Positions 14,301 through 46,884 are shown, counted from the first letter of the stretch. The stretch is 64,000 nt of DNA from a virus (IMGVR_UViG_3300027887_000007:32001-96000), one strand, 5' to 3'. Numbers and translations are program-made. Notes: generated from the sequence alone by a model not told the origin.

Positions 14301-17300
14301 ATGAAGAAAACACGTTGCTCAGGAACTCGAATAGGGAACTCCCCGTCGGTTCGTGTCCGTGCCATGGGTTTGCGACGTACTGCTCCCATGCTTCCTGCTG
14401 TGCCTTAGGAAATCGCTTTGCTGCAAATTGAGCCAGCTCCTCGAATCCAAGTGGAAGGTCAAAGCCTAGGAAATTGCCGTCCCTCAGTATCGGGTACTCA
14501 TCTAGCACCTGCTGTGGAACCTCGCGCCCGATGCTGAGAGCCTCTTCCACAGCCTTGAAGTGGTGGTCGTCGTAGAGCTCGTTGTGAAACTGAGCCTCTT
14601 CAACCGCAAGGGCGAAGTTCCTGACGGCCTGATGGGCGACGTCCTTCGTCAGCGCGAGCTCGTCCGGGCTAATGTCACGCTCGTCAATGGCCGGATCGTT
14701 GAAGAGCTGATCGACCTTGTTGTGCCACAGCTCGAACCACTCGGCGAGCTCGATTTCGCTATCAAGCAGGCCTTCTCTTACCCAACCTCCCAGCAGGTGC
14801 ATCTCATCTTCCATGCTGGTGATCGTGTTACGGTACTTGAACGTGTAGAGACCGCGATTCTCCGGCCGCAGGAACTTCGGAGCGACCTGGTGGACTAGCG
14901 TCATGCGAAGATCGTCGAGCCCACGCTCGAGGACAGTGGGATCCTCGTGCTGCGGGTAGTCGCTCGCGTCGTACTGCTCCCTAGTCATCTGGTGAGGCTC
15001 TAGCTTCTGACTGGGCGGGGCGTTCTCGGACTCAGGCGGCGGTCCCGGCAGACCTCCCTGCGCCGCCTCCGAAACCATTGCGGCTATCTCTTCGGCGGTT
15101 CCTACGTGGATCCTGATCGGTGTGAGCGGTTTCCCCTCTTTCGCGTTGAACTCGTTACGGAATGCTTGGACCTGACGCGGGACGTCCCACCTCGGAACGA
15201 CCGCATGGCCGGCTACGGTCATCGTCCCGTCAGGATTGACCGCCCATACGATTACGCCTGCGTCGGCGTCGGCGTCCTTGGGGGCAACGATTCCGAGGAG
15301 CTCATAGAGCTTCCCGGCGTCAAGCATCGAACTAATGTCGTCCTCGCTGTACGAGTCCGATCGGTAGACGAGGAATCCGTCCTCGACTTTCGGATGGTCG
15401 GAGATATCAACCAACCGAAGCGGGGGCATGATGTTCCACAGCTCCAGAGAATCCTTCTCCTCGTCGGTTAGCTTCGCCATCGTGGATGCCGCGATAAACA
15501 CGGCATTGCGGCTGCCGTTGGCAAGGTTAGCCAACTGCAGTTTGATGGTGTCGGGATCCTCGGGCAACGTCGGCTGAGTAGCCGTCGGCGGCGCCTCCGT
15601 CGTTTCGGGCGGCGGCGGCTCCCCAACCGGAGCGCCCTCGATTGGCTTGCGAACTATCTTCGACTTGGCGGCTAGGTACCCAAGGTTGTCGTTCGCCTGG
15701 AATACATACTTCGCCTCTCCGGTTGTTGGGTCGTAGATCAGCTCGCCGTTCTGGTCGTGATCGTATCCATAGATAGCGCCGGCGAAGGCTCCGATCTTTC
15801 CGTTCTCCAGAACGTGATAGAGCGACTGACCGACTCTCTGGTATTTCAGCCCATCTGTTGTAACGAGCTGGTCGCCTTCTTCCATGACCGCAAGGATCGT
15901 ATGACCCTGAGCGACGATCTCTCCCTCTGCCTGCATCCGGGCCGACTCGTCACCGGCTAGTGGCTGGGCTTCCATGATCTCTGTCATGCGACGATCCAGC
16001 CACGCCTGTACTTCCATTTCATCAAGACCGTGAAGCATCCCGACTAGGACAGAATCAGCCGGCGTTGCCGCCTCTCTAGTCTCTGGCGGCTTGGTTAAGC
16101 CGGGTTCCTGCGGAGCAACCGTTTTAGGAAGGAGTCCCCGCTCTAGCCTCTCTACCTCAGAAAGCTCCAGCTGCGAGAATTCCTTGCCGAATAGCCGGCG
16201 CGAGATTCGATCCGGGTCGAGTCCAAGGCGACCCATGATCTCGCTGACTCTGGCTACGGCAGCGGTCATTACCGCATCGCCCGGGTACGGTGTATTCGCC
16301 GAAGTCGGAGGAACGAAGGTTCCGTAGATCGCCCGGTAGGAACGCTCGATAGCCAAGAGAGCGCTCTCCGGCAATGTGCTGGAGTCTATCGAGGCCAGAA
16401 CCTCGGCCGGGATCGGGTTTCCTGTCTCGTCGAGGTGTGTCCCAATCTCCTGCGCGATCGTCAGTCTCAGGTTGGGATCCTTGTTGTCCCACCATTCAGC
16501 CGCAGCCTTGATCTGCTCATCGGAAGGACCACCGACCGGTTCATTCGGCTCGAGCTGCCTGCGGATCCAGTCGGAAGGACCGGCCGCATCCATTAGGTCA
16601 AGGACCTCCTGCGGAACCGGGGAGACAGGATTGTCCCTGTACTGCGACAAGGTGTCGGAGGCTTGGCCAAGCCATTCGATCTGTGATTCGACGCGGCTGC
16701 GCTCCGAGGCTCTGTCAATGTTTAAGATCAGGTCCTCGCGTTCCCGGCCGATGCGAGCCACGGCGAAGTCGATCTGATTCGGCGTTGGAACTGGGGGCGC
16801 CGGCTCAGGCGGAACACCCTCTACTGGGGGGACGCCGCCTTCTACTGGGGGGACGCCGCCTTCTACTGGAGGGACGCCGCCTTCTACTGGAGGAACACCG
16901 CCTTCTACTGGAGGAACACCGCCTTCTACTGGAGGAACACCGCCTTCAGGCGCAGCCGGAGGGGGAGTTTCGGCGGGAGGTGTCGGAGCCGGTACAGTAG
17001 GGAGAACTCCCTTGTGCTTGTCGAGTACCCCGACCAGCACTTGCCGCAGCTCGAGGATGTTCCACTGCGCGATCTCTTCATCCTTGAAGCCGGAGTACCG
17101 GAGGACCCGCATCACCTCGTCCGTCACTCCATGAGGGTTGCCAGTCTCCGCTTTGGCCGGGGCCCGGCGCATCCCACGTTCGAGTGCGTATATGGCGCCC
17201 TTTACCGCAGTCGGAACCGAGAACGCCGCGATCTCCTGTCCGAACTGATACAGGAAGTCGTCGATCGCTTCTGCTTTGGCAGACATGGGATCCGTGAAGA

Positions 17301-27790: not shown

Positions 27791-28432
27791 TTACGCTCCC
27801 GGGAAGTCCGTTACCGGAGTGCCGTAGATCAGGCGCTTCGCCAGCTGCACCCCGACGATATACCTCGCATGGGCGTACGCGGCTCTGGCGAGGTCTTGGT
27901 TGTCTCCGTCCCTTGCCAGCGCCAATGCTATCACCTCCCATCGGATGTACGGTTCCCAAGGGTCGGCCACAGCGATCAGTTCGTTGAGGTCGTGGCTATG
28001 CTCGTCTGGGATCAGATCGTAGAAGACTCTGTAGGTGCCTCCTGCTGCCGGGATCTTGTCGAATTCCCATTGCACGATCGGCAGATGGTCCTCGTGGTAG
28101 TACCGCGGGTGACCGACTGTGTTGCTCCTCCAGTCGGGATCCTCTCGCTCGAGATCCCATGACGTTACCCGACGGAGACGCTTGCGGTCGAACGAAAGCC
28201 TCTCGATATCACCCATTTGCGCCGTCTTCGTGACCAGAGGGGAACTTCCACCCGGGAGTACAACCGTATCATCCTCTTTGATGATGCCGGTCTGCCGCAA
28301 GAAATCCCGTTCGGCATGGGTGACGTACTCGATCATCTCCTGCTGTGTCCAGACTCCGGCCCCGAAGTTCTCGTCCTCCTCTTGGAGATCGAGAGCAACC
28401 CGCTGCAGCAATTCCCTGACCGTGGTCGCCAT
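27791..28432 (-). CDS. Head-tail adaptor protein (DUF6682-like)
   Basis: MATTVRELLQRVALDLQE..WTQQEMIEYV helical N-terminus, GHPRYY, C-terminal helices. Confidence 0.7.
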   Translation of the reverse strand: MATTVRELLQRVALDLQEEDENFGAGVWTQQEMIEYVTHAERDFLRQTGIIKEDDTVVLPGGSSPLVTKTAQMGDIERLSFDRKRLRRVTSWDLEREDPDWRSNTVGHPRYYHEDHLPIVQWEFDKIPAAGGTYRVFYDLIPDEHSHDLNELIAVADPWEPYIRWEVIALALARDGDNQDLARAAYAHARYIVGVQLAKRLIYGTPVTDFPGA

Positions 28433-29113
28433 TTACTGTTTCGTCCCCTCTTGCGCCCCGCGCCTCAGGGTAGACTCCGAGGTTACGGCCTCCCTGACAT
28501 CCCACGATGGGAAGCTCCTCAGCACGTTGCGGCCGGAGAGCTGCTGGACAACTTCAATGAACCGGATGTAGAAGGAACCGCCTTGCTGAAACTCCGCACC
28601 GCCCTCTTTGAACATCGCCCGAGATACGATGTAGTCCTCCAAGGCCCTTTCGTACTCAGGCCGGCACGGGAGGGGAAGCCCATCGTCATACACGCGATCG
28701 TACTCTGCCAGACCCTCGACGTAGACAGTCCCGGCCAGTAGCGGGCGCGGGTAGATCAGAATCTTGTTCAAGCCCAACGATGACCAACTGCGGATGTCCC
28801 TCCTCACCTCGTTCGCAGCTTCCCAGTCGGCTTCGTTGTCCATTGCGTCGACCGGCTGGCGGTGCAGGTAGTGGCTTCCGTGGCGGGCTGATACCGGGGA
28901 GATGATTCCTTCCGGAAGATCGTAGACGTTCTCTGCGTTGGTTACGTCAACCTCGAAAGTATCCTGACTGTCGAAGGCGATCAGGTTGAGTTCGTTCAGG
29001 GCGTCGTTGAGGAATACGACAAGCTCGTCCCTCGTCCATCGGACCGGGGCTTCTGGTAGAAGTTCGTTAAGGCGCCGGAGCGCCTGGTCGATCAGCTCTC
29101 TCGATGTCGCCAT
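28433..29113 (-). CDS. Head-tail adaptor protein (paralog of 27791-28432)
   Basis: WTRDELVVFLNDALNEL, YDLPE, ILIYPRP, ALEDYIVSRAMFKE. Confidence 0.7.
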   Translation of the reverse strand: MATSRELIDQALRRLNELLPEAPVRWTRDELVVFLNDALNELNLIAFDSQDTFEVDVTNAENVYDLPEGIISPVSARHGSHYLHRQPVDAMDNEADWEAANEVRRDIRSWSSLGLNKILIYPRPLLAGTVYVEGLAEYDRVYDDGLPLPCRPEYERALEDYIVSRAMFKEGGAEFQQGGSFYIRFIEVVQQLSGRNVLRSFPSWDVREAVTSESTLRRGAQEGTKQ

Positions 29114-29119
29114 GATCCA

Positions 29120-29479
29120 CTAGCTCGTCCTCAGCGTGACGTCCGGGTAAACGACTAGGTATCCAGACGCGAGCGTGTAAATGCTTCCCTGTGAGGTGAC
29201 CATCTGGCAATCCCATAGAAGCTGGTGCTTCCCGTTCGTCAGACTGGAGGTATCCGTGGGGGATATCGTCACTGTGAAACGCCCGTTGACCGCAGACGTC
29301 ACCGATATTCCGCTGCCGATCGACTTCTGGAACACCGCGGAGCCGTCTTCGTCGGTGTAGTTCCACTTGGCGGTGAAGTAGATGGCTGCCCCCGTGATGT
29401 CGTAGACCGCCCCGTTGGCGACGACCGAAGCCAGAAGGCTGACCGTGTCTCCGCGATACATCGTAAACGTATTGGACAT
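29120..29479 (-). CDS. BppU-N-like Ig-fold virion protein
   Basis: MYRGDTVSL..YDITGA.IYFTAK..NGRFTVTISPTDT..WDCQMV..G.L.V.PDVT. Confidence 0.65.
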   Translation of the reverse strand: MSNTFTMYRGDTVSLLASVVANGAVYDITGAAIYFTAKWNYTDEDGSAVFQKSIGSGISVTSAVNGRFTVTISPTDTSSLTNGKHQLLWDCQMVTSQGSIYTLASGYLVVYPDVTLRTS

Positions 29480-29483
29480 TTCT

Positions 29484-29966
29484 TCACCTTAGCTGAAATC
29501 TGATCGTAGCGGTTGGCGGCGACTCCTTCGTGAATGTGGCTGTCGGCACACCGAATCCCGTGTCAAACGGAACGCATACGGCATCTCCCCCTCCGGGCTC
29601 ACCGGGCTCCGGAGGCTCTTCCCCGGTCGGCTGGACCGTCGCGGAGGTTTCGGGGACCACCCTTACCTGAAAGACGCTCGTCACTACCAGTGTCGTCGGC
29701 GGCTCTGTGGTACCCCAGATGATGACCCCCGCCGTCTGCGAGACGAGCATCAGCGGGTTGTCGCCCTGCACCGCAGCTACTCCGGCCTGTGAGATAAATT
29801 TAGTCGGGTCGTCGCCGTGGATTACTGACGCGCCCAATACCGTATTCCTGACGACTGGGTCATCTCCCTGAATGAGGGAGAGACCGTCCGTCGTGAATCT
29901 TGCTACGGCATTGCCGCCGGAGAGGAAGATCGCGCCGGCTTTGAGGATCCGATTTATCTCGGCCAT
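29484..29966 (-). CDS. Beta-strand repeat protein (putative appendage scaffold)
   Basis: About five ~17-aa repeats ending IQGDDP/IHGDDP/VQGDNP with ISQ/VSQ motifs; Pro/Glu linker. Confidence 0.55.
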   Translation of the reverse strand: MAEINRILKAGAIFLSGGNAVARFTTDGLSLIQGDDPVVRNTVLGASVIHGDDPTKFISQAGVAAVQGDNPLMLVSQTAGVIIWGTTEPPTTLVVTSVFQVRVVPETSATVQPTGEEPPEPGEPGGGDAVCVPFDTGFGVPTATFTKESPPTATIRFQLR

Positions 29967-29968
29967 AG

Positions 29969-31081
29969 TCAGCTTGCCAACTGGTACCCAAGCTCAACAT
30001 CGTTGGCTTGAGCAACCGTAAAGGGCGATCCCGTTACTGGATCGACGTATAGGAACGACTGGCGCCACAAGAATTCGACGTCGTAAGCGCTCTCGTTGTC
30101 GCCATAGGAGTCCGTTGCAGACCTACGGGCGACAACCTTCAATCCGTGCGGGAGAGAATCCAGCTTTTTCCCCTCAACGCTGATGCCAAGGGCCCTGACG
30201 CTGGTCAAAGCATTCGTGATCACGGCCCCGCCATAGGTGAACGTATCCTTGTTGCCTACGGTATCTGCCGAGTTGTATGAGTTGCTTCCTCCGGTCGACC
30301 AGTCAACCGGGCTCTCGTTGACCATCGCGTAATTGTCCGTACCCTCGAACGGCGTAAAATCGGAGTAGAATCCGTCCGCCACCGGAGCGACCTCGAGGAC
30401 CTTGAGGTCCCCTATGAAGCTCTTCATGTAGGTTCCGGTGGCATCCATGATCACGACGTCGTCAAGAAGGTGGTAGTCGACCGCAGTCGGCCAGCCCATC
30501 GAAATCGGCCCGGTGAAGGTCCCGCCGAACCTAATCTCGTCGATGATCGCACTGGTCCCGGGAACGGCTGAAATGAAGTTTCCCGTTCCAGACCAGTGTA
30601 TTACTCCGTCTATCCGACACTCCAACCAACCGGTGCCGGATCCTCCAACCGTGAAGTCGACTTCGACCCAATGCCAAGTCTGCTCTGAAAACTCGTGTGT
30701 GCCGTGACCGACTAGAACATTGCCGCCGTCGTAGATAAGGATGTTCTTGTTGACAACGTGGACTCCGGCGTGACGGTTGTTGTAGTTCCAGAAGTCGACG
30801 AGCGCCATCTCTCCGGTGCCGTCGGTTTTGATCCACCGTCCGCATCCGACGATAACCCTCGGTAATCCTCCGAATCCGGCGAGTTCAAGACACCCGCTGC
30901 CTGTCATCTTCAGGCAGCTTCCGATGCCATGCCGAGCGTAGTCTGCCCCTTCGACACTGAAGTTGCCGGAGGAAACCCAGTAGTAGCCGTTATAGAAGCG
31001 AGCGTACAGACCCCACGAGGCGGTGGCACCAAGATCGTTATCGTCAGTCAACTCAAAGCCGACAGCCCGAACGACAGCCAT
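29969..31081 (-). CDS. Virion appendage protein: concanavalin/LamG-like domain plus conserved C-terminal jelly-roll (paralog 4 of 4)
   Basis: TWHWVEVDF, LLDDVVIMDATG..FIGDLKV...PVADG.YSDF..NYAMVNE, DPVTGSPFT..NDVELGY. Confidence 0.7.
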   Translation of the reverse strand: MAVVRAVGFELTDDNDLGATASWGLYARFYNGYYWVSSGNFSVEGADYARHGIGSCLKMTGSGCLELAGFGGLPRVIVGCGRWIKTDGTGEMALVDFWNYNNRHAGVHVVNKNILIYDGGNVLVGHGTHEFSEQTWHWVEVDFTVGGSGTGWLECRIDGVIHWSGTGNFISAVPGTSAIIDEIRFGGTFTGPISMGWPTAVDYHLLDDVVIMDATGTYMKSFIGDLKVLEVAPVADGFYSDFTPFEGTDNYAMVNESPVDWSTGGSNSYNSADTVGNKDTFTYGGAVITNALTSVRALGISVEGKKLDSLPHGLKVVARRSATDSYGDNESAYDVEFLWRQSFLYVDPVTGSPFTVAQANDVELGYQLAS

Positions 31082-31089
31082 GGTTCCCC

Positions 31090-32175
31090 CTACGAGTTGA
31101 TCTTGTAGCCGAACTCCGCGGCATTCACCGCTGAGCGGGTAAACGGATATCCCGTATTCGGATCAACGTAGATGAGAGATTCGAGCCAGTTATAGGAGCT
31201 CGGCACTGGAACGACTGACCCGACTCCGTCGACTCCGGAAGACCGGCAGATGCCGACGAAGGTGTGACCACCACCGTCGATACAGCGAGCGTAGGCGGTG
31301 CAGCCAACCGCCGCGATCGTGGTGTTCGGGTTGGTGAGCGGGGTTCCGAATGTGAAGGTATCCTTGTCTCCGACGGTCTGCGAAGAGTTGTAGGTTGTGT
31401 CGTCGTCCGGAGGGACCTCATTGACCATCTCGAAATGGTCGGTCCCAGAGAGCGGGGTGAACTGCGTGTAGTATCCGTCCGCGGTTGGGGAGAACTCACT
31501 GACCTTCCGGTCGCCGATGAAGTCGTTACAGTAAGTTCCCGTCGTGTCCATCACGATCAGGTCATCCCACTGTTGCAGCGTGACGCCTACGGGATTGGCG
31601 TCGGATAGGGCGCCATTCCTCTGACCGCCGATCGCCCATCCGTCCGCGCCCGCCGTCGTCGACGTGATCGTGTTGATACCGGTCAGCGAAAGAATAACCT
31701 GCTCGTCGACTCGCATGACGATTGAGCCGGTCGTTCCATGGAAAACGACCTTGATCTCAATCCAATGCCAAGTCGACTGGCTGACCTCGGTACTCGCCGT
31801 TCCCAGCAGGGTCCCGTTGCCACGGTAGGCTTTCACTGTACGGTTCAGAACCCGGATGTAGCACTGGATCGTCGTGCCGTCGAAGAACTCCGCAATGTTG
31901 ACGTCGGTTACCGTGTTGTCGGTCAGGTAGTAGCCGAAAGACAGAATCATCGTCCCAAGGCTTGCGCCAATCCCGTCGCGGATCTCGCACCCACCGCCCG
32001 TGTCCAAAAGACACTTTCCCAGAGCATTCCTCGGGTTGACGTCCGATACGGTGACCATCGACGGAGCTAGGCTGATGGCCCCGAAGCCGTTCCTACGGCA
32101 GACCGTGAAAAGTTTGCTGTTCTTCGCAGCGGTACTGTCCATCAACTCAAAGCCACAATACTTTCGGATAGCCAT
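31090..32175 (-). CDS. Virion appendage protein, LamG-like (paralog 3 of 4)
   Basis: TWHWIEIKV, WDDLIVMDTTG..FIGDRKV..PTADG, VNEVPPDDDTTYN, DPNTGYPFT..NAAEFGYK. Confidence 0.7.
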   Translation of the reverse strand: MAIRKYCGFELMDSTAAKNSKLFTVCRRNGFGAISLAPSMVTVSDVNPRNALGKCLLDTGGGCEIRDGIGASLGTMILSFGYYLTDNTVTDVNIAEFFDGTTIQCYIRVLNRTVKAYRGNGTLLGTASTEVSQSTWHWIEIKVVFHGTTGSIVMRVDEQVILSLTGINTITSTTAGADGWAIGGQRNGALSDANPVGVTLQQWDDLIVMDTTGTYCNDFIGDRKVSEFSPTADGYYTQFTPLSGTDHFEMVNEVPPDDDTTYNSSQTVGDKDTFTFGTPLTNPNTTIAAVGCTAYARCIDGGGHTFVGICRSSGVDGVGSVVPVPSSYNWLESLIYVDPNTGYPFTRSAVNAAEFGYKINS

Positions 32176-32186
32176 CGTTCACTCCC

Positions 32187-32561
32187 CTACCTGATGAACT
32201 GAATCTTCAAAACGAAGCTGATAACCTGCCCGAGGGCGACTGCGTGACCCGGAGAAATGGTCTCGTGGAGAATCAGATTTCCACCGACTAGCGCGTCATA
32301 GAGTCCCCATTCCGTGATGGTTTTGGCCGCATTTGCCGCCAAACTGCCGGAGACTTGGTAGGTGTCACCGGTAACCGAGATCGTGGTGATCTGGCTAACT
32401 CCGGCCACTCGCGCCTCTGAGGCCTCGGTAAAAAGGGCTAGGTCGTTGGCGCCGGCGGTCCCCGCCCCGGTTCCCCACGCGATGTAAAGCGGCTCGGTGC
32501 CGTTCCCCTTGACTCGGGCAGCGACGATCGCAAGTCCGACGTTGGTAACGATCTTGGCCAT
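32187..32561 (-). CDS. Tail-fibre base/collar-like protein
   Basis: IVTNVGL..YIAWGTG..DLALFTE..TITEWGLYDALVGGNL; related to 36462-37112. Confidence 0.6.
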   Translation of the reverse strand: MAKIVTNVGLAIVAARVKGNGTEPLYIAWGTGAGTAGANDLALFTEASEARVAGVSQITTISVTGDTYQVSGSLAANAAKTITEWGLYDALVGGNLILHETISPGHAVALGQVISFVLKIQFIR

Positions 32562-32564
32562 AAC

Positions 32565-32864
32565 CTACCTCTCCAGTACGTTGCTCCAGCGAACCTTGAA
32601 GTGCATCTCGCCTGCCGCCTTGCCGTTCCCGGTAGACCAGAACCGGTAGTAGTAGTCCCCCGACAGTTCCACGTCCCTTGAGATTTCGTAGACCCCGACT
32701 CCGGTCTTTTGAACCTCAGGATCGGTTCCATAGACCTTGGTCACCTTCGACCGGTTCGGCAGCCTCATCTCAAATGATACGGTATCCGGGTCAACTGGCT
32801 CCCCGTCCGCATCGACGAAAGTCGCGGAGCAGACGATCCTGTCACCGATGTCGTACGTGTTCAT
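32565..32864 (-). CDS. Ig-like virion protein
   Basis: YDIGD.IV...F.D.DGEPVDP..V....P...GVGVY......SG.Y.YR beta-sandwich pattern. Confidence 0.6.
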   Translation of the reverse strand: MNTYDIGDRIVCSATFVDADGEPVDPDTVSFEMRLPNRSKVTKVYGTDPEVQKTGVGVYEISRDVELSGDYYYRFWSTGNGKAAGEMHFKVRWSNVLER

Positions 32865-33388
32865 GGCATCTTCCTATCCGACAGGCGGGCGTCAACCGCC
32901 GTATCTCTAACTAGGGCCTCCCCGCTTCTAATGCTCACCTGCGCCCTCCACGTTCGCGCAACCTCGCTCGCAGCCCTGTAAACGAGGGTCTCGAGCTCGT
33001 AGTCGCCCAGCTTAGCATCCCACTCCGGGTGATCCCTCAGGATCAAGGTTGCGATCTTCTTAATAACCTCTATGAAGAATCGCTGGAGCGTCTCGATGTC
33101 GAACTCGAGAGCGACTTGAAAGTCGGCCATCGCCCTCGGCGAGAACTCAACCTCGATCGGAAACGCGATCGTAGGATTGGTTATCATCGTTGCCGAGATA
33201 GACTCATCAACAATCAGGGCAAAGGCGATCTCCCGGGAAGCGTCAAGTGTTACTGATACCGCGTCCTCTGCCTCGAGGCCTAGGGCGACATCCACATTGA
33301 AGATCAGCTGCCCGGGCCAGTAGTTGGTCTCCCAGTAATCGAGATCCCAGAACCCTGACGCGAAGTATCCAACTCCACCTTCAGACAC
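32861..33388 (-). CDS. Hypothetical structural protein
   Basis: GTG start with GGAG RBS; N-terminal YFASGFWDLDYWETNYWP aromatic motif; beta-rich. Confidence 0.55.
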   Translation of the reverse strand: MSEGGVGYFASGFWDLDYWETNYWPGQLIFNVDVALGLEAEDAVSVTLDASREIAFALIVDESISATMITNPTIAFPIEVEFSPRAMADFQVALEFDIETLQRFFIEVIKKIATLILRDHPEWDAKLGDYELETLVYRAASEVARTWRAQVSIRSGEALVRDTAVDARLSDRKMP

Positions 33389-33396
33389 TCTAACTC

Positions 33397-34032
33397 CTAC
33401 GGTGTCAGCGTCATCGAGGTACGGTTATTGTTGGCATCCGTCACCACCACAGCCCTTGTAGCAACCCCGTTCGGCGTCTTGAACGTCTTTCCGGCATTCG
33501 CCGTGACGCCAGATAGTACCGACAGCAGAATCGAAAGGATCTGGTCGTAAGTGTAGTTCCCCTGTGATTCTGCAATTCGAGCGCCAAGCGCCGCCGCGAT
33601 CGTACTTTCCGTCACCACCTGAAGGTCGAATGCCGTAAGCTGGATTTCCTTCATATTCGGCCCGATGTTCAGTGCCGTGGTCGTGGCCTCGTAAATGTTG
33701 ATCTGGACCTTTGCGGAGGCGTCGGCAGCTCCGAAGATCGTTGCCGAATCGTGGAACTGGATCTCGTACATCCCCGGGAAGTTGGTCGCGTCAACCGCCT
33801 TGAACCTGCAGTACGTCGAGCCCGTGGGCGCCTGGTAGGTCCCGGGAGTCGTGATGTCCTCGATGTTGGCCCCCGTGTAGGTCACGGTTGCCCCCTGCTC
33901 CCTCCGGTAGGCAATCACGAGGTTCGTACTGGCGTTGGTCAGGCCGGTCTTTCCCGCACCTGTCGTACTCGAGTTGTCGGGGATGAAAACCCGAACCATC
34001 TGAGATGTGGCTCCGCGGGTTCTGATGTCCAC
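33397..34032 (-). CDS. Hypothetical structural protein
   Basis: Ig-like N-terminus (GKTGLT, VDATNFPGMYE); C-terminal TYDQILSILLSVLSG..TDANNNRTSMTL. Confidence 0.6.
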   Translation of the reverse strand: MDIRTRGATSQMVRVFIPDNSSTTGAGKTGLTNASTNLVIAYRREQGATVTYTGANIEDITTPGTYQAPTGSTYCRFKAVDATNFPGMYEIQFHDSATIFGAADASAKVQINIYEATTTALNIGPNMKEIQLTAFDLQVVTESTIAAALGARIAESQGNYTYDQILSILLSVLSGVTANAGKTFKTPNGVATRAVVVTDANNNRTSMTLTP

Positions 34033-34404
34033 CTAAAAGCCCCCTCTCATGGCGCTGAATCCACCGTAGAAGTCCGGGTTGATCAGTAATCCACCGGTTT
34101 CCTTGACGATGACCTCAAGTACAAACTGCGACACTCTTGGACCCGCGTCTGAGTAGAACACCGTCTCAGTGGCGAACTGTGAGACTCTCGGCGGGTCATC
34201 GCTTCCATAGATCGTTTCTACCGCTAACTGGCTGACCTTGTTGACCGAATTTTCTAGGACCGAGTACAGCAGAGCCTTTGTGATGTCTATGCCGGCAGGC
34301 GGCTCTATGACTGACTCTAGTACTCCCTTCGCTACGCCAAGCCCGGTTGTCGGCTCGAGGACCGAGTAAAGTACAGATTTACTGACCTCTACACCTTCAG
34401 CCAT
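34033..34404 (-). CDS. Beta-strand repeat protein (putative appendage scaffold, 3+3 repeats)
   Basis: VSKSVLYSVLE/VAKGVLESVIE/ITKALLYSVLE, then KVSQLAVETI/RVSQFATETV/RVSQFVLEVI. Confidence 0.6.
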   Translation of the reverse strand: MAEGVEVSKSVLYSVLEPTTGLGVAKGVLESVIEPPAGIDITKALLYSVLENSVNKVSQLAVETIYGSDDPPRVSQFATETVFYSDAGPRVSQFVLEVIVKETGGLLINPDFYGGFSAMRGGF

Positions 34405-34422
34405 CTAACATCCCCTCGGACT

Positions 34423-35406
34423 CTACGTGGCAGACCTGAAATTGATCTGGGCAGCGTCCAGAAGAGTCGGGGTTATCGCCGCCGCGTTCCACTGCGTCAT
34501 GTAGCGTTCGTAGGTTTGCCATCCAGAGGCAAGGGCTTGCCCCGCGTCGACGTCAACCGTCCCGCCGGACTTTACCCCAAGCTTCAGTGTGCCGACTGTT
34601 GCCGAAGACGTCTTCAATGCTCTGGCGGCAATCTTCGTAGCTATCACGTTCACCGAAGAAGACGGCAGGTTCGACAGCCCAAACTGGGCATCCTGAGCGT
34701 CTGAGTCGACGACGATCAGATCGGCATCGCTGATCGTCGTTTCGTCGATATCCGTGTACGCTCCGGTCCAAGCATTCGCATCCCCGGCGCCGTTGGGGTA
34801 GTGCGTTACCAGTGACATAGCCCGCGTGTCAGTGGTAGCCACGATCATCTCGGAGAAGTACTCCGTTCCCGAACCGGACAGGTGGGTGTAGATGACTACG
34901 ATGTCGAAATCGGATACACCCGAGATCGACGAGTCTCCGGTGAAGGTGAGGGCCAAGACGCCATCGACGTAGACCCTTATTGTGGAAGAGCCCCCGTAGC
35001 TCGACAGCTGCATGTCGATCTTCTGAAGCGTGTTGTTGATAAGCACCGTACTCGCCGATGCCGCAAGCTCAGTTCTCGTGGATCCGTCCCATGTTGCGAC
35101 ACTGACCTTTCCACCGGAGCTTGTTGCGGGACCAAGGAATATCCCTTTGTCCGTTCCCAGCTTGCCGATCCCTATCTTCATCCGGCCGGCGTTGGCTGTG
35201 TCTATCTTCCACCAGACAGACAGCCAGCAGGACGTTACACCACCGCCAGAGAAGGTCGTCGACTTGTAGTAAACGTAGGGGGAGGCTGTAAACCTCACCG
35301 AGCATCTGCCGTACCCGGAACGGAATGTCGTCGAACCGGTCTCCACCGGAATTGTGCTAGCGTTTGGAAAGTCGATGTCCTCTCCACCGCACCATAGGAT
35401 CGACAT
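34423..35406 (-). CDS. Virion appendage protein, LamG-like (divergent paralog 2 of 4)
   Basis: IRVYVDGVLALTFTGD, FSEMIVA..DTR..L....PNGAGD..AWTG.YTDIDE; ends LDAAQINFRSAT. Confidence 0.65.
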   Translation of the reverse strand: MSILWCGGEDIDFPNASTIPVETGSTTFRSGYGRCSVRFTASPYVYYKSTTFSGGGVTSCWLSVWWKIDTANAGRMKIGIGKLGTDKGIFLGPATSSGGKVSVATWDGSTRTELAASASTVLINNTLQKIDMQLSSYGGSSTIRVYVDGVLALTFTGDSSISGVSDFDIVVIYTHLSGSGTEYFSEMIVATTDTRAMSLVTHYPNGAGDANAWTGAYTDIDETTISDADLIVVDSDAQDAQFGLSNLPSSSVNVIATKIAARALKTSSATVGTLKLGVKSGGTVDVDAGQALASGWQTYERYMTQWNAAAITPTLLDAAQINFRSAT

Positions 35407-36458
35407 TACGTTTCCCTCTTGTAGCCGAACTCGGCAGCATTAAAGCCGGCCTTGGTGAATGGATATCCCGTAGTCGGATCCACATAGACTGGACTCTGCA
35501 GCCAGTTGTAACTCCCGGCGACTGCCTTTTCCGGGCCCAAGCCGTCGGTTGTGCCGGTTCGAGCAACCCCCTTCACGGAAGCGCCGCCCTCAACCTTGGT
35601 GTAGATGCTGCAAACCACTGCAGAAATCGCAGACGCCGCGGCTAGTTGTGTGACGGAGAAGGTGTCAATCTCTCCGACTGTTTCCGTGTAGTTGTAGGTT
35701 GTGTCGTCGTCTGGGGGGACTTCGTCTACGTTGGCGTAGTTGTCTGATCCGGCACTGCGATCCCATTGCTTGTAGGATCCGTCGGCAGTAGGAACGCACA
35801 CTTGAACGATGCGTGGGCCGAGGAGGGCATTGCAGTACGAACCGGTGGTGTCCATGATGATGATGTCGGACCATCTGGCCGTATTGGCGTCCCAGTCCCC
35901 TTCCGTTCCGGTCCCGTATCCGAATCTGATTTTGTTGCAGTAGGCGTTTGCGGTGTACTGGGTGTCCTGACCGGTGAGATTCAGAACCGTTTGATTGTCG
36001 ACCTTTACCAGAACTGCTCCGACCGAGTTGTCGATCGTTACGTCCACCTCTATCTGGTGCCAAGCGTTTGCCGGCACCGACGCGCCAGACTCTTCACCGA
36101 TTTTTGTTCCGACCCCACTGCTGGCACGGTAGGCAGATATCTTCCCATTAGCACAACCTATGGATAGCTGGGCGCCGTACCGCGCATCTCCGTCCGAGAA
36201 GGTGACAAGGGCCGGGATCCCGGGGCCCCACCACTGCGAAGCGTAGAATCCGAATTGAACCAGAATCCGCTGGTAGTTTGCCGGGAGAGCTTTCACGAAG
36301 TACTGCCCGCCGCATTGCGGGTGAATCAAGTACCTCGCGTTTGCGGTCCTGCCCGATCCCGTGCCGATCGAAGGACTGTAGCCCACACCAAACGAGTCGT
36401 ACCGTTTGGTGATCAGCGAGATGTCGTATGGGAATCCGTCGACGAACAGGAGGGCCAT
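35406..36458 (-). CDS. Virion appendage protein, LamG-like (paralog 1 of 4)
   Basis: MALLFVDGF, AWHQIEVDV, WSDIIIMDTTG, PTADG, VDEVPPDDDTTYN, DPTTGYPFT..NAAEFGYK. Confidence 0.7.
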   Translation of the reverse strand: MALLFVDGFPYDISLITKRYDSFGVGYSPSIGTGSGRTANARYLIHPQCGGQYFVKALPANYQRILVQFGFYASQWWGPGIPALVTFSDGDARYGAQLSIGCANGKISAYRASSGVGTKIGEESGASVPANAWHQIEVDVTIDNSVGAVLVKVDNQTVLNLTGQDTQYTANAYCNKIRFGYGTGTEGDWDANTARWSDIIIMDTTGSYCNALLGPRIVQVCVPTADGSYKQWDRSAGSDNYANVDEVPPDDDTTYNYTETVGEIDTFSVTQLAAASAISAVVCSIYTKVEGGASVKGVARTGTTDGLGPEKAVAGSYNWLQSPVYVDPTTGYPFTKAGFNAAEFGYKRET

Positions 36459-36461
36459 GGC

Positions 36462-37112
36462 TTAGACGCTCGTCATCGTAATCGTTACCATCACGTTGAC
36501 CGTGTCACCGGATCCAACAATCTTCACCCCACCGGTAAAGTCGCCTTCACCGAGCAGGGTTCCGGTGCTGTCTGCCTTGACTGGATTGTCTACGAGACCG
36601 CCGCCGCGGACGGTCATGTCGGCATTGATGTTGAAAACCGCCTTGGACCCGGAGTTGCTGACGGCCCCGCCAGAGATGGTTCCCGGCGTGAATGCCGGCC
36701 GGGTCGCGTTGCTGTAGGGTTGACCCTCCACCCATCCGCCGTGGGTTGCGAAGGTGTCGGCTGCGCTATAGCCGGTAGTGAACCCCGCGTTGTTGACGAG
36801 GAAGACGTACCAGGCCGGAACCGCAAGCCCGGTCTTCAAGGTGGCATCGAGGTAGGCGTTCAACCCCACGGTCGGGACAAGATTCTCGATCTTGTCGTAC
36901 CAGATCCGCTCGCTGCGATGCGGCAGCGGACATTGATCATGAGGGGTGGTGCAGCGGGCCCCATCTTCGTGATAGTGCCGGAAGCACTCGAAGTCGTAAG
37001 TCTGCGAGACTCGGATGTTCTGTCCAGCTCTCATCCGGCCGAGTTCCTTTGCGACAGCCTCGCGGACCTTCGACAGGGACACCCTAATGGTTCCGTGTAC
37101 GGCTTCGTCCAT
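36462..37112 (-). CDS. Tail-fibre base-like structural protein
   Basis: ENLVPTVGLNAYLD, YSNATRPAF..GTISGG, F.INAD.TVRG, VGSGDTVNV. Carries a small Cys/His insert (CFRHYH..CTTPHDQC). Confidence 0.6.
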   Translation of the reverse strand: MDEAVHGTIRVSLSKVREAVAKELGRMRAGQNIRVSQTYDFECFRHYHEDGARCTTPHDQCPLPHRSERIWYDKIENLVPTVGLNAYLDATLKTGLAVPAWYVFLVNNAGFTTGYSAADTFATHGGWVEGQPYSNATRPAFTPGTISGGAVSNSGSKAVFNINADMTVRGGGLVDNPVKADSTGTLLGEGDFTGGVKIVGSGDTVNVMVTITMTSV

Positions 37113-37127
37113 GACACCCCCCAAACG

Positions 37128-37685: not shown

Positions 37686-38327
37686 TTACTGTTTCTCTGT
37701 CAACACCCGGTTGAAGTCCTTAGACCCCACCGGTTTTGGCACACCCATCTGGTTGACCTCAAACGATGTATCGCAGTGGATCTTGATCCCGGCTGCCGTG
37801 GCAGACTGGCAGAAGTTGAGGTCGGCAGTGAACTTCTCTTCCTTGTCGTACCAGAACCAAGGCTCCCTCATCTGCCAGAGTATCTCGGTCCGGATCATGA
37901 TCACACCGGTCCCTACCCCGTCGCACTCAACGAGTGCGTTTTTGGGGTAGTCCAATATCGGATTCATGCTGCCGTCCGGGGCCCTTTTGAAGAGCAGGGG
38001 GGCATGGTCGCCACCGGACCTGAAGAACAGCGGTGCGACGATGTCCACGTTCCGCTCGAGCAGACGGTCGAACACATCGGCCGTTGGAAGCATGTCATCG
38101 TCGATCATGGCGACGTGACTGAGACCGTTGTTCTTGGCGATACTGCAGGCTATGTTTCTGGCCTTGGTGATCTTCATCTTGGGGCCGGCAACCATCCACC
38201 TGACGAGGAATCGCCCTTCGGCTTCCGCCCGTCCGCAGGCTCCAGCAAGAACCAGAAAGTGAGAGAATGGTGTTGGTTGGACTCCCCAGTAGGAGGGGAC
38301 TAGGGCAAGGATTTTCGCATCTGGCAT
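37686..38327 (-). CDS. GT-A fold glycosyltransferase-like protein
   Basis: ITKARN, HVAMIDDDM (DxD), DIVAPLFF, GVGTGVIMIR, PWF, ADLNFC...AGIKIHCDTS. Confidence 0.75.
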   Translation of the reverse strand: MPDAKILALVPSYWGVQPTPFSHFLVLAGACGRAEAEGRFLVRWMVAGPKMKITKARNIACSIAKNNGLSHVAMIDDDMLPTADVFDRLLERNVDIVAPLFFRSGGDHAPLLFKRAPDGSMNPILDYPKNALVECDGVGTGVIMIRTEILWQMREPWFWYDKEEKFTADLNFCQSATAAGIKIHCDTSFEVNQMGVPKPVGSKDFNRVLTEKQ

Positions 38328-40427: not shown

Positions 40428-41402
40428 TTACAGGGAAGTTACCCCAGACAGAACGAAGTTGAGACGCGGGGCCGGGAACAGGAGGTTGCCGGAGAAGAGA
40501 TACTGACCGGCGACGTCATCCGTGTTCTGCGCTTCCTTGAACCCGGTGAACCCGAACTGGTACTTCGGCAACGTGCTGATCCAGAACTGGATGTACTTCG
40601 TGTTGAGACCGAAGATGTATCCAGACGGAGCGTACTGGTCGACGGTGATGCTGGCGCCGTTCCAGCGCAAGCTCTGGAATCCGATCTTCGCCACGTCCGA
40701 GGATTCCTCAAGGAACCTCTGCTGCGGCTGGACCTTGTTCCAGACCATGTCCCAGATGGACTGAGACGTGACGATGAGGTCGATGTGTTCGTTGCCGAAC
40801 CATGACGCACCGTACGCGGTCTGAAGTCCAAGCATCGTGAACGGCTGGAGGGTGTTGACGTAACCGTTGATGCCCTGGTTGTTGGTGCCGTTGGCAACGC
40901 CCAGATCGGAGCGCGTGATGCCCCCGTACGAAGCGTAGGTGTTGCCGTTGTCGAGGGCCTGAAGCATCCCATCGAGGTTGATCGTTGCTGAGTTGACGCC
41001 CGTCCCGTCAAGGAAGAGGTCGGTGCCGAGGAGCTTTGCCATCTTGCCGCTGGCGTTGACCATCTTCGACTCGACGTAGTTCATCGCCGCGTCTGGACCC
41101 CGAGCGATCACGTTGTCAGTGCCGAACAGCGTGACATTGACGTAGTAGTACTTGGGGTTAACCTCGATCGCGGTGTCGGTCTGGACGTAGGTGATGTTGA
41201 AGGTGCCGCCCCTCTGAAATGCGCCGCCGTTGAGTTCCGCGTACGCGATCGGGTGCCTGATCGTCGTACCACCCTCAAACCGCTCTGCATTTCTGGTTCG
41301 GAGGCGGGTGAAGACTGGCGAGGATTTGTAGACGTTGTCTACCAACCGGGGGACAATGTGCTTATTGACCTTCCCGGTTATGTCGTCCCATGTTAGGGCC
41401 AT
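40428..41402 (-). CDS. Major capsid protein (HK97 fold)
   Basis: LVDNVYKSSPVF, GGTTIRHPI, YVESKMVNA..MAKLLGTDLF.DGTG, YGGITRS, GFQSLRWNGA.I.VD, NL....PR; follows the scaffold. Confidence 0.9.
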   Translation of the reverse strand: MALTWDDITGKVNKHIVPRLVDNVYKSSPVFTRLRTRNAERFEGGTTIRHPIAYAELNGGAFQRGGTFNITYVQTDTAIEVNPKYYYVNVTLFGTDNVIARGPDAAMNYVESKMVNASGKMAKLLGTDLFLDGTGVNSATINLDGMLQALDNGNTYASYGGITRSDLGVANGTNNQGINGYVNTLQPFTMLGLQTAYGASWFGNEHIDLIVTSQSIWDMVWNKVQPQQRFLEESSDVAKIGFQSLRWNGASITVDQYAPSGYIFGLNTKYIQFWISTLPKYQFGFTGFKEAQNTDDVAGQYLFSGNLLFPAPRLNFVLSGVTSL

Positions 41403-44717: not shown

Positions 44718-44893
44718 TTGAGTTTCCTCGTGGCGATGATGTACCGCCGCCTGACACTTCCCAACCACCATTCATAGATGGCGGCGAGAACCTTGCTCCT
44801 AGGACCAACGTAGTCGATCTGAAAGATCGCAGCCCGTTGTTCCACGGCACGGGACGTGAAATCCTCAGGACCCAAGTGATACGCGAACTTCAT
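44690..44893 (-). CDS. Hypothetical protein (67 aa)
   Basis: ATGA-coupled to the upstream gene. Confidence 0.45.
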   Translation of the reverse strand: MKFAYHLGPEDFTSRAVEQRAAIFQIDYVGPRSKVLAAIYEWWLGSVRRRYIIATRKLKCFYHSARS

Positions 44894-46884
44894 GACGGCA
44901 CCTCAAGTACTCCAATGCCCATCGAGGGCCCCGGGCATCCGGGGTACTCGCCCGGGTCGAAAAACTCGTGGTGGACGAATCTCCCCTTTATTTCCTCCCA
45001 CAGCCGGCTGACGAAAACCCCAAGGCTGCGGTGATAGTCGCTGTCGAGAATGTCATGGAAGACGATCAGACCGCCTGGTCGAACAGACGGACTGTAGGCC
45101 TCGAAATCCTGTCTGACACCCTCATAGGTGTGGTCCCCGTCGATAAACAGAACGTCGACCTGTCCAGCCATTTCGGTAGCCCGGTGGATGATCGCCCAGT
45201 CGTGGCTGTCCCCCTCGATCTCGGTAACATGCTTTGCGAGCGGGGTCTCGTCGTACACCTGCCGGGGATAGTAGTGGGCGAGCTCGGTAAACCCGCCCCA
45301 GTCGAATCTCTGGTCAACCGCATAGACCATGCCATCGTGAGGGGCGACCATCTTGGCCCAAAACATGGCGCTTCCACCCCTGTACACGCCTATCTCAAGT
45401 ACCTTCTTGATCTTCCGTGCCGACAGTAGCTTCTGCAACGCCATGAGCTCGCCCGGCTTTTGGGCGCAAGGCCAGTCGATCTTGATGCCGGCGAACCCGT
45501 ACCGCTCTCGGATGATCGCCCGGCAGCGCTCGAAATGCTCCGGCGTCATCCAAGAGGCGTGATTCTCTTGGTGAAAGATCGGGAAGTTTCCGATCATCAG
45601 GCTTCCGTTGTTCGGGAGCGGCCCTTCTTTCGGGACCTGAATGGTCTGGTACCCGGCGTCCTGAACCTTGAAGCAGAAGTCCATGTCCTCAAATCCGCCG
45701 GGATTGAAAGTCTCATCGAACAGACCGACCTTATCGAACATGTCCCGGCGAACGGCGGCGCAGAAAAACATGACGAACCAGCGGTCCACGTCCGATGCGT
45801 ACCCCTTCAGTGGGCCGGTAACGCCGAAGCGCTTGGTCCTCAGAGGCTCAATCAGTGTCGGCAGCCATAGTCGCGCCGCTTCGGGATTGTTGTTTAGGAT
45901 CACCGCATCATCATTGATGAAGACGATGTACTCTCCACGGGAAGCCCGCACCCCCTCGTTGAGCGCTCTGGTAGCTCCGATCCTCTCTGGGAACCATACC
46001 AACCTGAATGGATCCCCCAATGTCTGGGCGAAGTAGCGAGCATCCTCCTCCGCTCCATTTGCCACAATGACCACCTCACCGTTGGTCAGATCGGTGGCTG
46101 CAACGATGCTCGACACGCAGGCCTGCAGATTCCTCGCCGAGCAAGTAGGGATGACTATCGAGAACTCGGCAGTCTTCTCCTTGAATCCGTACCGCTCGCG
46201 GAGGATGTTGAAGTTCCGGGCGAAGGTCTCCTGCCACTTCTCGGCCACCCCTTCGAGGGAATGCACTGTACCTTCGGCCGCATGGTAGATCGGGAACTCC
46301 CCCGACCAGAACTTCGGGTTAATGTTCCCATCCAGCTTATCGTGGGGAACCTGAACGATGCCGTACCCCTTCTGCTTCGCCTTCATGGCGAAGTCCATGT
46401 CTTCCCCGGCGCCCGGGTTGAAGCACTCGTCCAGCAGGCCGATCTCGTAGAACAGGGTGTGCCGGATCATGGCACAGAAGAAGAGGATGAACTCGCAGTT
46501 GGTTGCCGGGCTGCGCGTCTTGAGTGGTCCGGTGATGGCCACTTTCGGGTTCGAGAAAGGCGCCATCATCATGTCGATCCACTGGTTTTTGGACTGCGGG
46601 AGCAGGATTACGTCGTCGTTCAGCAGGACGATGTACTCTCCGCGGCAGACCTTGATCCCCTCGTTGAGGGCCCGTGTGGCCCCGATCGGCTTGTCATAGT
46701 GAAGGTACTCTACCGGAACGCCGACCTCGGTAAGTCCCTTGGCGAACCGGCGCGTTTCTTCCCCGGCGCCGTTTGCGACCACAACAATCTCGGTGTCAGT
46801 GAGATTGGTGTACTCAGCAATAGACGCCAGACATTGTTTCAACAGAGATAGGGTACACGTCGGTATGACGATGCTTAACTTCAT
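44890..46884 (-). CDS. Tandem GT2 glycosyltransferase domains fused to a class I SAM methyltransferase (Methyltransf_24-like)
   Basis: Two copies of SIVIPTC..IGATRALNEG..GEYIV.LNDD..FFCA..GL.DE.FNPG..EDMDF; then VLEIGVYRGGS, LFIDGDHTYEGVRQDF, GGLIVFHD. Confidence 0.9.
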   Translation of the reverse strand: MKLSIVIPTCTLSLLKQCLASIAEYTNLTDTEIVVVANGAGEETRRFAKGLTEVGVPVEYLHYDKPIGATRALNEGIKVCRGEYIVLLNDDVILLPQSKNQWIDMMMAPFSNPKVAITGPLKTRSPATNCEFILFFCAMIRHTLFYEIGLLDECFNPGAGEDMDFAMKAKQKGYGIVQVPHDKLDGNINPKFWSGEFPIYHAAEGTVHSLEGVAEKWQETFARNFNILRERYGFKEKTAEFSIVIPTCSARNLQACVSSIVAATDLTNGEVVIVANGAEEDARYFAQTLGDPFRLVWFPERIGATRALNEGVRASRGEYIVFINDDAVILNNNPEAARLWLPTLIEPLRTKRFGVTGPLKGYASDVDRWFVMFFCAAVRRDMFDKVGLFDETFNPGGFEDMDFCFKVQDAGYQTIQVPKEGPLPNNGSLMIGNFPIFHQENHASWMTPEHFERCRAIIRERYGFAGIKIDWPCAQKPGELMALQKLLSARKIKKVLEIGVYRGGSAMFWAKMVAPHDGMVYAVDQRFDWGGFTELAHYYPRQVYDETPLAKHVTEIEGDSHDWAIIHRATEMAGQVDVLFIDGDHTYEGVRQDFEAYSPSVRPGGLIVFHDILDSDYHRSLGVFVSRLWEEIKGRFVHHEFFDPGEYPGCPGPSMGIGVLEVPS

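Follow-up and report, generated by a model that had tools for sequence, protein, structure and literature searches.

How phages mount and exchange their receptor-binding proteins governs their host range, and the locus considered here raises the question of how a set of large lectin-like proteins might be mounted on small repeat proteins encoded directly beside them. The locus lies in a 64,000-nucleotide stretch (IMGVR_UViG_3300027887_000007:32001-96000; the whole stretch is called the window hereafter) of a complete 110,207-bp IMG/VR virus; every gene of the region is on one strand, the minus strand, to which all coordinates below refer. Within positions 29484 to 36458 there are two pairs of lectin-like genes, each followed by a repeat gene: lecA1 (350 residues; 35406-36458) and lecB (327 residues; 34423-35406) precede rope1 (123 residues; 34033-34404), and lecA2 (361 residues; 31090-32175) and lecC (370 residues; 29969-31081) precede rope2 (160 residues; 29484-29966). 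An earlier note on this DNA had proposed that the repeat proteins supply the lectin-like proteins with a last beta-strand, by which many adhesins would be strung on one short peptide. Having compared about 100 phage contigs, we consider a beads-on-a-rope arrangement, in which the heads would dock through their C-terminal domain on typed strands of the rope, to be the best explanation, and we favor it with moderate confidence.

The idea of many heads on one short peptide has a solved architectural precedent in the rope fibers of podophages GP4, Bas63, and A1002 (PMC13730344, PMC12609058). The chain-like ‘Fiber-I’ of GP4 has related assemblies in Bas63 (collar/whisker), VP1, and A1002 (JMB 2023 435:168258; PMC12609058; PMC13730344). 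The GP4 rope has a gene of its own and bears five gp80 dimers, which dock on it by beta-sheet augmentation (PMC13730344, PMC12609058); it interlocks with an immunoglobulin (Ig)-like collar (PMC12609058) close to the adaptor. The Bas63 rope extends from the collar itself, and A1002 has eleven dimers, belonging to two bead types, that each pair with the rope in an augmented beta-sheet (PMC13730344, PMC12609058). Rope fibers came to light in 2023, and only for a single small bead family. The rope principle is established, but for a bead family other than the lectins.

Typed pairing of lectin-like and repeat genes

The description of the two small proteins as rows of spaced strands in the earlier note was borne out, with three plus three units in rope1 and five to six in rope2. 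The three type-1 units of rope1 (VSKSVLYSVLE, VAKGVLESVIE, and ITKALLYSVLE; 34243-34395), recognized by a position-specific scoring matrix (PSSM) at residues 5, 22, and 39, are followed by three type-2 units (KVSQLAVETI, RVSQFATETV, and RVSQFVLEVI; 34099-34242) with matches at residues 55, 72, and 89, and the rope2 units (29643-29957) represent a third type of the form x[VF][ST][QNT]xxxxxx[IV]xGDDP. The best self-similarity in both proteins was found at a lag of 17 residues, with BLOSUM lag scores of 121 for rope1 and 66 for rope2 that were reached in none of 2000 shuffles (shuffle maxima 25 and 21, respectively). Units of type 1 and type 2 can be aligned in register, and their main differences lie at position 3 (K or Q) and position 7 (Y or E).

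A word-indexed homologue search with rope1 gave no match, nor did tblastn against the INPHARED phages, and nothing relevant was found in PDB sequence searches with rope1, the type-1 and type-2 rope profiles, the lectins, the lecA profile, and GP4 gp79. An exhaustive profile-free search with rope1 yielded 32 proteins falling into four groups: proteins of 65-80 residues with exactly three type-1 units starting from Met1; a 77-residue protein (P0129) with three type-2 units and a rope1-like tail (..LLxNPDxxGGFxxxRGGF); proteins in which three type-1 units and, after them, many type-2 units follow a globular N-domain; and giant proteins with up to 20 matched stretches, one of them 6221 residues long. 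Repeats are also present in cis on many other virion proteins, and the long repeat-bearing proteins received almost no annotation in Pfam and PHROG scans. Rope1 ends in a C-terminal tail (..LLINPDFYGGFSAMRGGF; 34036-34098) that we presume to be its virion anchor. The tails of stand-alone ropes recur in many loci (..FWPxIxRLLDQ, ..VVQVCG, ..LIIIVAG, and ..LLxNPDxxGGFxxxRGGF), and the different forms probably correspond to different anchoring sockets on the virion.

The genomic context of these repeats was compared in IMG/VR loci from three independent collections, derived from alignments of the rope (6 loci), lecA (80), and lecB (28). An open reading frame (ORF) starting within 60 nt of the last lectin stop codon was taken as the repeat ORF, and repeat types were counted by PSSM. 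The gene directly upstream of the repeats encoded a lecB homologue in all six rope-first loci (E 1e-61 to 1e-87), and the repeat ORF started between -54 and +48 nt from the lectin stop codon in 41 of 47 cases from the lectin-first loci, such that both ascertainments agree on the pairing. Runs composed of A-type lectin genes only (n = 80) were accompanied by type-2 repeats alone in 52 cases, never by type-1 repeats, and by no recognized repeat in 28. For B-only runs (n = 25) the corresponding figures were 18 with type-1 repeats alone (here a module of three repeats), none with type-2, and seven without recognized repeats, while all three mixed A plus B runs had both repeat types, as in the window. 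There were zero cross-type cases (Fisher p 4e-17), and the pattern is unbroken across 47 clusters at 50% identity. Comparative genomics thereby lends strong support to two proposals of the earlier note, namely that the repeats belong with the lectins, given their adjacency in these loci, and that two strand types serve two lectin types. At the level of gene sequences, we regard the pairing of lectin type and strand type as real, widespread, and previously unannotated. It extends to subtypes: a variant unit, V-T-R-Q-x-x-E-V-L, is present in at least 11 of the 28 A-only runs without recognized repeats, and lectins with E in the last strand occur with T-Q repeats (26:1), those with Q in the last strand with T-R-Q repeats (1:6; p 4e-5).

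Lectin and repeat genes are separated by gaps of only -4 to +23 nt in most loci, and this tight translational coupling would also suit a scheme in which the lectin-like proteins serve the repeat protein encoded downstream, either as assembly chaperones or as factors that are not part of the virion. We consider that scheme highly improbable. Known fiber chaperones usually lie downstream of their client; moreover, the ConA/LamG-like and CBM-like domains of the lectin-like proteins, described below, are typical of exposed glycan-binding or glycan-cleaving modules, and tandem arrays of up to five lectin paralogues fit receptor diversification better.

The more lectin genes a run has, the more repeats accompany it (Spearman rho 0.58, p 2e-8). 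Single lectin genes are most often accompanied by three repeats (36 of 65), with counts of 2, 4, and 5 also occurring; one locus with two lecB genes (L096) has six type-1 repeats in two subtypes, another with three lecA genes (L074) has nine type-2 repeats, and a third with four lecA genes and one lecB gene (L104) has at least 12 type-2 and three type-1 repeats. The progression from a mode of three to six and nine for one, two, and three lectin genes, together with stand-alone ropes that usually comprise exactly three units, is what one might also see if the same partners met in another geometry, with the lectins forming homotrimers and three consecutive repeats each binding one subunit, so that one trimer would sit on each triplet. 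Yet the linkers between strands, with only about 6 residues, are short for spanning three symmetry-related sites, single lectins with 2, 4, or 5 repeats do not follow the rule of three, and the solved rope fibers carry serial dimers rather than trimers (PMC13730344). We judge the trimer geometry unlikely.

Domain structure of the heads and a candidate docking strand

The products of lecA1, lecA2, lecC, and lecB are paralogues with two domains each, a ConA/LamG-like N-domain and a beta-sandwich C-domain of about 140-150 residues. Among the A-type heads, lecA1 matches phrog_2448 over its full length (E 1e-28) and aligns with the lecA family, lecA2 matches the same family with E 3e-35, and the divergent lecC with E 4e-13 (lecA profile E 3e-47); lecB, the B-type head with 28 homologous loci, matches phrog_6368 (E 8e-21). 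Both families are annotated as function unknown. An AlphaFold2 model of lecA2, based on 98 homologues, had a predicted local distance difference test score (pLDDT) of 89.5 and a predicted template modeling score (pTM) of 0.90. Its residues 1-225 form a ConA/LamG-like jelly roll, whose best fold matches include many lectins as well as TtX122A (Z 18.2), a PL20 glucuronan lyase (Z 18.0), and a PL14 alginate lyase (Z 17.8), with a Foldseek E of 3e-8. PL36 polysaccharide lyases are likewise among the best fold matches of this domain. For the lecB N-domain, Pfam Laminin_G_3 appeared below the cut-off (E 5e-4). Because the N-domain fold matches include both lectins and polysaccharide lyases, the heads may bind or cleave host-surface glycan, and a depolymerase activity would be possible.

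That all four lectin-like proteins end abruptly, as the earlier note had remarked, is correct: the stop codon follows three residues past a conserved last strand (lecA1 ..NAAEFGYKRET; lecA2 ..NAAEFGYKINS; lecC ..NDVELGYQLAS; lecB ..AAQINFRSAT). All 98 aligned homologues, 107 further C-domains, and 24 lecB homologues end 2-5 residues past the conserved ..NAAEFG.K / ..NALQ.xL.S strand, and the abrupt end is the natural terminus of this lectin family. The C-domain also exists as stand-alone viral proteins of 140-220 residues (ESM Atlas), and some lectin homologues have a discoidin-like domain or another insert ahead of it. A statement in the earlier note, according to which such domains normally end in an RV[ST]QxxxEV strand, could not be verified, and its suggestion to look for homologues with the strand fused in cis led to none, as no chain among more than 200 homologues has both the C-domain and repeats. 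One protein (P0127) joins a lecB N-domain to three type-1 repeats without a C-domain. Strand exchange based on a resemblance of the lectin's own last strand to its cognate repeat was considered separately and rejected, the PSSM scores of lectin C-termini not being raised.

As a proxy for docking, we ran AlphaFold2 on an artificial read-through chain (TAG = Q) of the lecB C-domain (residues 192-327; 34426-34833) and rope1, using an alignment of seven similarly paired rows plus unpaired homologues, from which rows with type-2-only ropes were left out before folding. This chain is a modeling device that implies no claim of natural read-through. The two genes are in frame (34402-34425), with a TAG, five codons, and a second TAG directly 5' of the rope1 ATG; evidence of natural lecB-rope1 read-through was not seen. 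In the model, C-domain residues 1-136 had pLDDT values of about 90-96, and the first K/Y unit formed a 14-residue strand (148-161) with pLDDT 56-66; units 2 and 3 were disordered (pLDDT 33-42), and the Q/E units had pLDDT 50-56. The best 50 structural matches of the model were without exception CBM-like (galactose-binding-domain-like) jelly rolls or similar sandwiches (Z 7.7-9.5), including CBM32 (Z 9.5), IFT25 (Z 9.2), CBM86 (Z 8.9), and CBM6 (Z 8.2), with 117-136 residues aligned; the Foldseek template modeling (TM) score between CBM6 and the C-domain model was 0.62. In all 50 matches, the aligned range of the model ended at residues 155-167, that is within the rope strand, and several small targets were covered nearly end-to-end. 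As modeled, the lectin C-domain (in lecA2, residues 212-361; 31093-31542) appears to be a CBM-like jelly roll and is not a pilin Ig fold. It is plausible that the rope strand replaces the final strand of this jelly roll, an idea which the model fits at low confidence.

The disorder of the unbound repeats, although a monomer model cannot show a trimer, also speaks against the notion that the repeats fold on themselves into a fiber shaft (trimeric beta-helix or triple beta-spiral), the lectin being a mere neighboring gene for a distal tail-fiber or accessory protein that does not dock at all. A period of 15-18 residues would be usual for a fibrous fold, and long repeat arrays do exist, with up to 20 matched stretches in the 6221-residue protein and at least 14 in locus L100. 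A self-folding shaft would, however, leave unexplained why repeat and lectin types match, why more lectin genes go with more repeats, and why mixed ropes occur exactly with mixed runs; we regard it as quite improbable.

In the beads-on-a-rope arrangement, the rope would be a mostly unstructured chain whose 17-residue units act as docking strands and whose C-terminal tail anchors it near the neck of the virion. In each head, the ConA/LamG-like jelly roll at the N-terminus would bind, and possibly cleave, a host-surface glycan, and the C-terminal CBM-like jelly roll would be the socket, to which one rope strand is added next to the socket's own last strand. K at position 3 together with Y at position 7 would mark a strand for B-type heads, and Q with E at these positions would mark one for A-type heads, a subgroup of which would read R-Q and E; there would usually be three strands per head gene. 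The three K/Y strands of rope1 would accommodate about three lecB subunits and its three Q/E strands as many lecA1 subunits, and rope2 would carry lecA2 and lecC, or alternatively the gp80-like protein discussed below. What we infer here is physical binding with insertion of a strand, the ratio of heads to rope, and the site at which the rope is anchored. A wider reading would see in this a general phage docking code, in which a 17-residue strand serves as an ‘address’ (K/Y, Q/E, or R-Q/E at positions 3/7) that LamG-type heads read by inserting the strand into their CBM-like C-domain, with about three addresses per head gene. We put this generalization forward tentatively, at slightly below even confidence.

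Several points weigh against docking. With regard to the survey, lecB is a single clade at 40% identity, such that the B/type-1 pairing may count as few independent events, and about a fifth to a third of the lectin runs have no recognized repeat ORF downstream. With regard to the models, the docked strand is of low confidence (pLDDT 56-66) and follows an 11-residue artificial linker that favors a hairpin with the last strand; its contact was deduced from one-dimensional output and alignment ranges; the fold matches of the C-domain are of middling Z; and the C-domain, modeled at pLDDT >90 without a partner, need not be incomplete. Furthermore, a homologue carrying the docking strand in cis was not found in the sampled data, the rope2 repeats fit neither the type-1 nor the type-2 PSSM, and the lectin C-domain has no similarity to the gp80 family in an hhalign comparison (probability 0.2).

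Gene layout and the partner of rope2

The region is best explained as two appendage cassettes of a GP4-like podophage. Upstream of both lies the major head protein gene (40428-41402); downstream follow two SU10-type adaptor paralogues (27791-29113; PF24175 with E 2e-15 and 2e-10; phrog_399 and phrog_437), which provide a podophage neck context, and then genes for proteins of 1252 and 5952 residues. The 5952-residue ORF (2320-20178) occupies the slot of the 3224-residue ‘DarB-like antirestriction protein’ of GP4 and has nearly twice its size. Glycosyltransferase-like genes are found within the late structural operon (37686-38327 and 44890-46884), one of them fused to a methyltransferase-like part.

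Cassette 1 comprises, in this order, a 220-residue protein, lecA1, lecB, rope1, and a 211-residue protein. The first of these (36462-37124) belongs to phrog_8123 (PHROG E 7e-18), and its residues 168-215 match the gp80-family hidden Markov model (HMM) weakly (E 0.07), so its C-terminal part is possibly gp80-like. The 211-residue protein (33397-34032), included here for its position in the cassette, gave no match in Pfam and PHROG scans. Cassette 2 runs from a 124-residue gp80-like protein (32187-32561) through lecA2, lecC, and rope2 to a 119-residue, putatively Ig-like protein (29120-29479). The latter is a candidate collar or anchor for rope2; beside a weak Pfam match to BppU_N below the cut-off (E 6e-4), it had no PDB sequence match. 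The C-terminal part of rope2 (29487-29642) is presumed to be its anchor.

The 124-residue protein matches the GP4 Fiber-I (gp80) family in Pfam (PF23140, E 2.5e-6, above the cut-off) and by the gp80-family HMM (E 2e-56), has 750 homologues, most of them with PF23140, and weakly matches PDB chain 8jou_a. Judged by these profiles, it is a true and solid member of the gp80 family. Neither 8jou nor gp80-like chains were among the listed fold matches of the lecA2 and read-through models, the lists for lecA2 being filled by its N-domain. In 80 gp80-like loci, a gp80-like gene is typically followed by one for a strongly period-18 protein of 275-390 residues and by one for a protein of about 103 residues that is Ig-like by eye, sometimes with genes intervening between the gp80-like gene and that for the period-18 protein; a lectin C-domain occurs in none of the 80 loci. 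In three loci of this kind (L001, 9372-10661 of MW202796.1; L149; L172), the gene after the gp80-like gene encodes 300-430 residues that consist almost wholly of period-18 units (..K-A-V-S-K-x-L-S-Y-L-S-T-S..) and are annotated as hypothetical, and here, too, a protein of about 103 residues comes next that is Ig-like by eye; the period-18 protein is probably the common rope of GP4-type Fiber-I.

The partner of rope2 is uncertain, with lecA2 and lecC as one candidate and the gp80-like protein as the other. Were rope2 the rope of the gp80-like protein, as in GP4 Fiber-I, lecA2 and lecC would attach elsewhere. Cassette 2 indeed holds the GP4 gene set, with a gp80-family gene, a repeat protein, a putatively Ig-like protein, and adaptors; gp80-like genes typically precede period-18 repeat proteins, in some cases with genes between; the 5-6 units of rope2 resemble the number of five dimers on the GP4 rope (PMC13730344); and the misfit of its repeats to the lectin-linked PSSMs would find an explanation. 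A comparison with locus L129 points the other way. This locus keeps the gp80-like gene, the Ig-like gene, the adaptors, and the gene order, but two heads of another family replace the lectins, and the 102-residue protein in the rope2 slot lacks 17-residue repeats, so that in this comparison the repeats track the lectins and not gp80. In every other locus, moreover, the repeat ORF directly follows a lectin. We rate the assignment of rope2 to the gp80-like protein as rather unlikely, though less so than the trimer geometry.

L129 is one of five loci (L128-L131 and L133, on contigs of about 64-110 kb) in which two proteins of about 355-770 residues replace lecA2 and lecC beside the gp80-like gene. 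They share a conserved strand near the N-terminus (M-x-R-[FY]-x-T-x-x-F-T..) and a motif near the C-terminus (..L-x-E-[VI]-E-[IV]), and they look like a second family of heads for this slot. In addition, L129 has the Ig-like and adaptor genes of cassette 2, with a homologue of the 119-residue protein in the same slot, and the C-terminal part of its 102-residue protein resembles that of rope2 by eye (unscored).

Relation to known strand-docking systems

The comparisons with chaperone-usher pili and cellulosomes drawn in the earlier note hold as analogies, not as membership. Like chaperone-usher donor-strand complementation, the scheme has a beta-sandwich accepting a strand of another chain, as the AlphaFold proxy and the fold alignments suggest. 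The C-domain is CBM-like, however, and not an Ig pilin without G strand, and a single rope chain would donate many strands to many acceptors, whereas each pilin donates one to the next subunit. Chaperone or usher families were not detected in Pfam and PHROG scans of the neighboring genes, and the locus is a phage structural module. With the cellulosome scaffoldin, the rope would share typed, repeated docking sites that gather several carbohydrate-active heads; unlike there, these sites would be 17-residue strands instead of folded 140-residue modules, and Pfam scans of ropes, lectins, and fused homologues revealed no cohesin or dockerin. The wider docking code, if it exists, would be the viral equivalent of cohesin-dockerin, and its bead family would have no relation to gp80.

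Such a pair is also present in a described phage. In Caulobacter phage phiCbK, the hypothetical gp103 (362 residues) is a lecA homologue (E 2e-10), and directly beside it in the tail module the hypothetical gp102 (69 residues) has three type-2 repeats and a hydrophobic tail. phiCbK differs from the window in that the gene order is rope then lectin, in being a siphophage, and in having one lectin type. Docking would assign a function to two widespread families, phrog_2448/6368 and the small repeat proteins, gp102 and gp103 of phiCbK included, which are now annotated as unknown, and it would extend the rope principle to large glycan-binding heads and to both podophages and siphophages. Positions 3 and 7 of the 17-residue unit would become a sequence rule for head placement and an annotation handle for phage adhesin arrays. 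Under the wider docking code, because an address array can sit on a stand-alone tiny peptide or on any tail or neck protein, multi-head adhesin arrays could be assembled and reshuffled by swapping short strands.

The closest relatives of the proposed assembly are GP4-type fibers. The Ralstonia podophage GP4 shares its general gene order with the window, including the DarB-like giant and the adaptor-like pair gp81 and gp82, and here as there a rope with tandem sites stands beside a bead gene, with gp80-family, putatively Ig-like, and SU10-type adaptor genes present in the window. The proposed beads, on the other hand, are LamG-plus-CBM-like proteins of about 350 residues without similarity to the gp80 profile, and the repeats of the window show no sequence similarity to gp79, which is probably the GP4 rope. 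Unlike in GP4-type fibers, the proposed docking strands fall into types matched to bead types, usually three to a bead gene, and two types can share a rope; tail-tip regions of siphophages, phiCbK among them, contain the module as well. Set against the known rope fibers, the present locus, as best explained, stands apart by its bead family, by addresses that come in types, and by a ratio of roughly three sites to each head gene.

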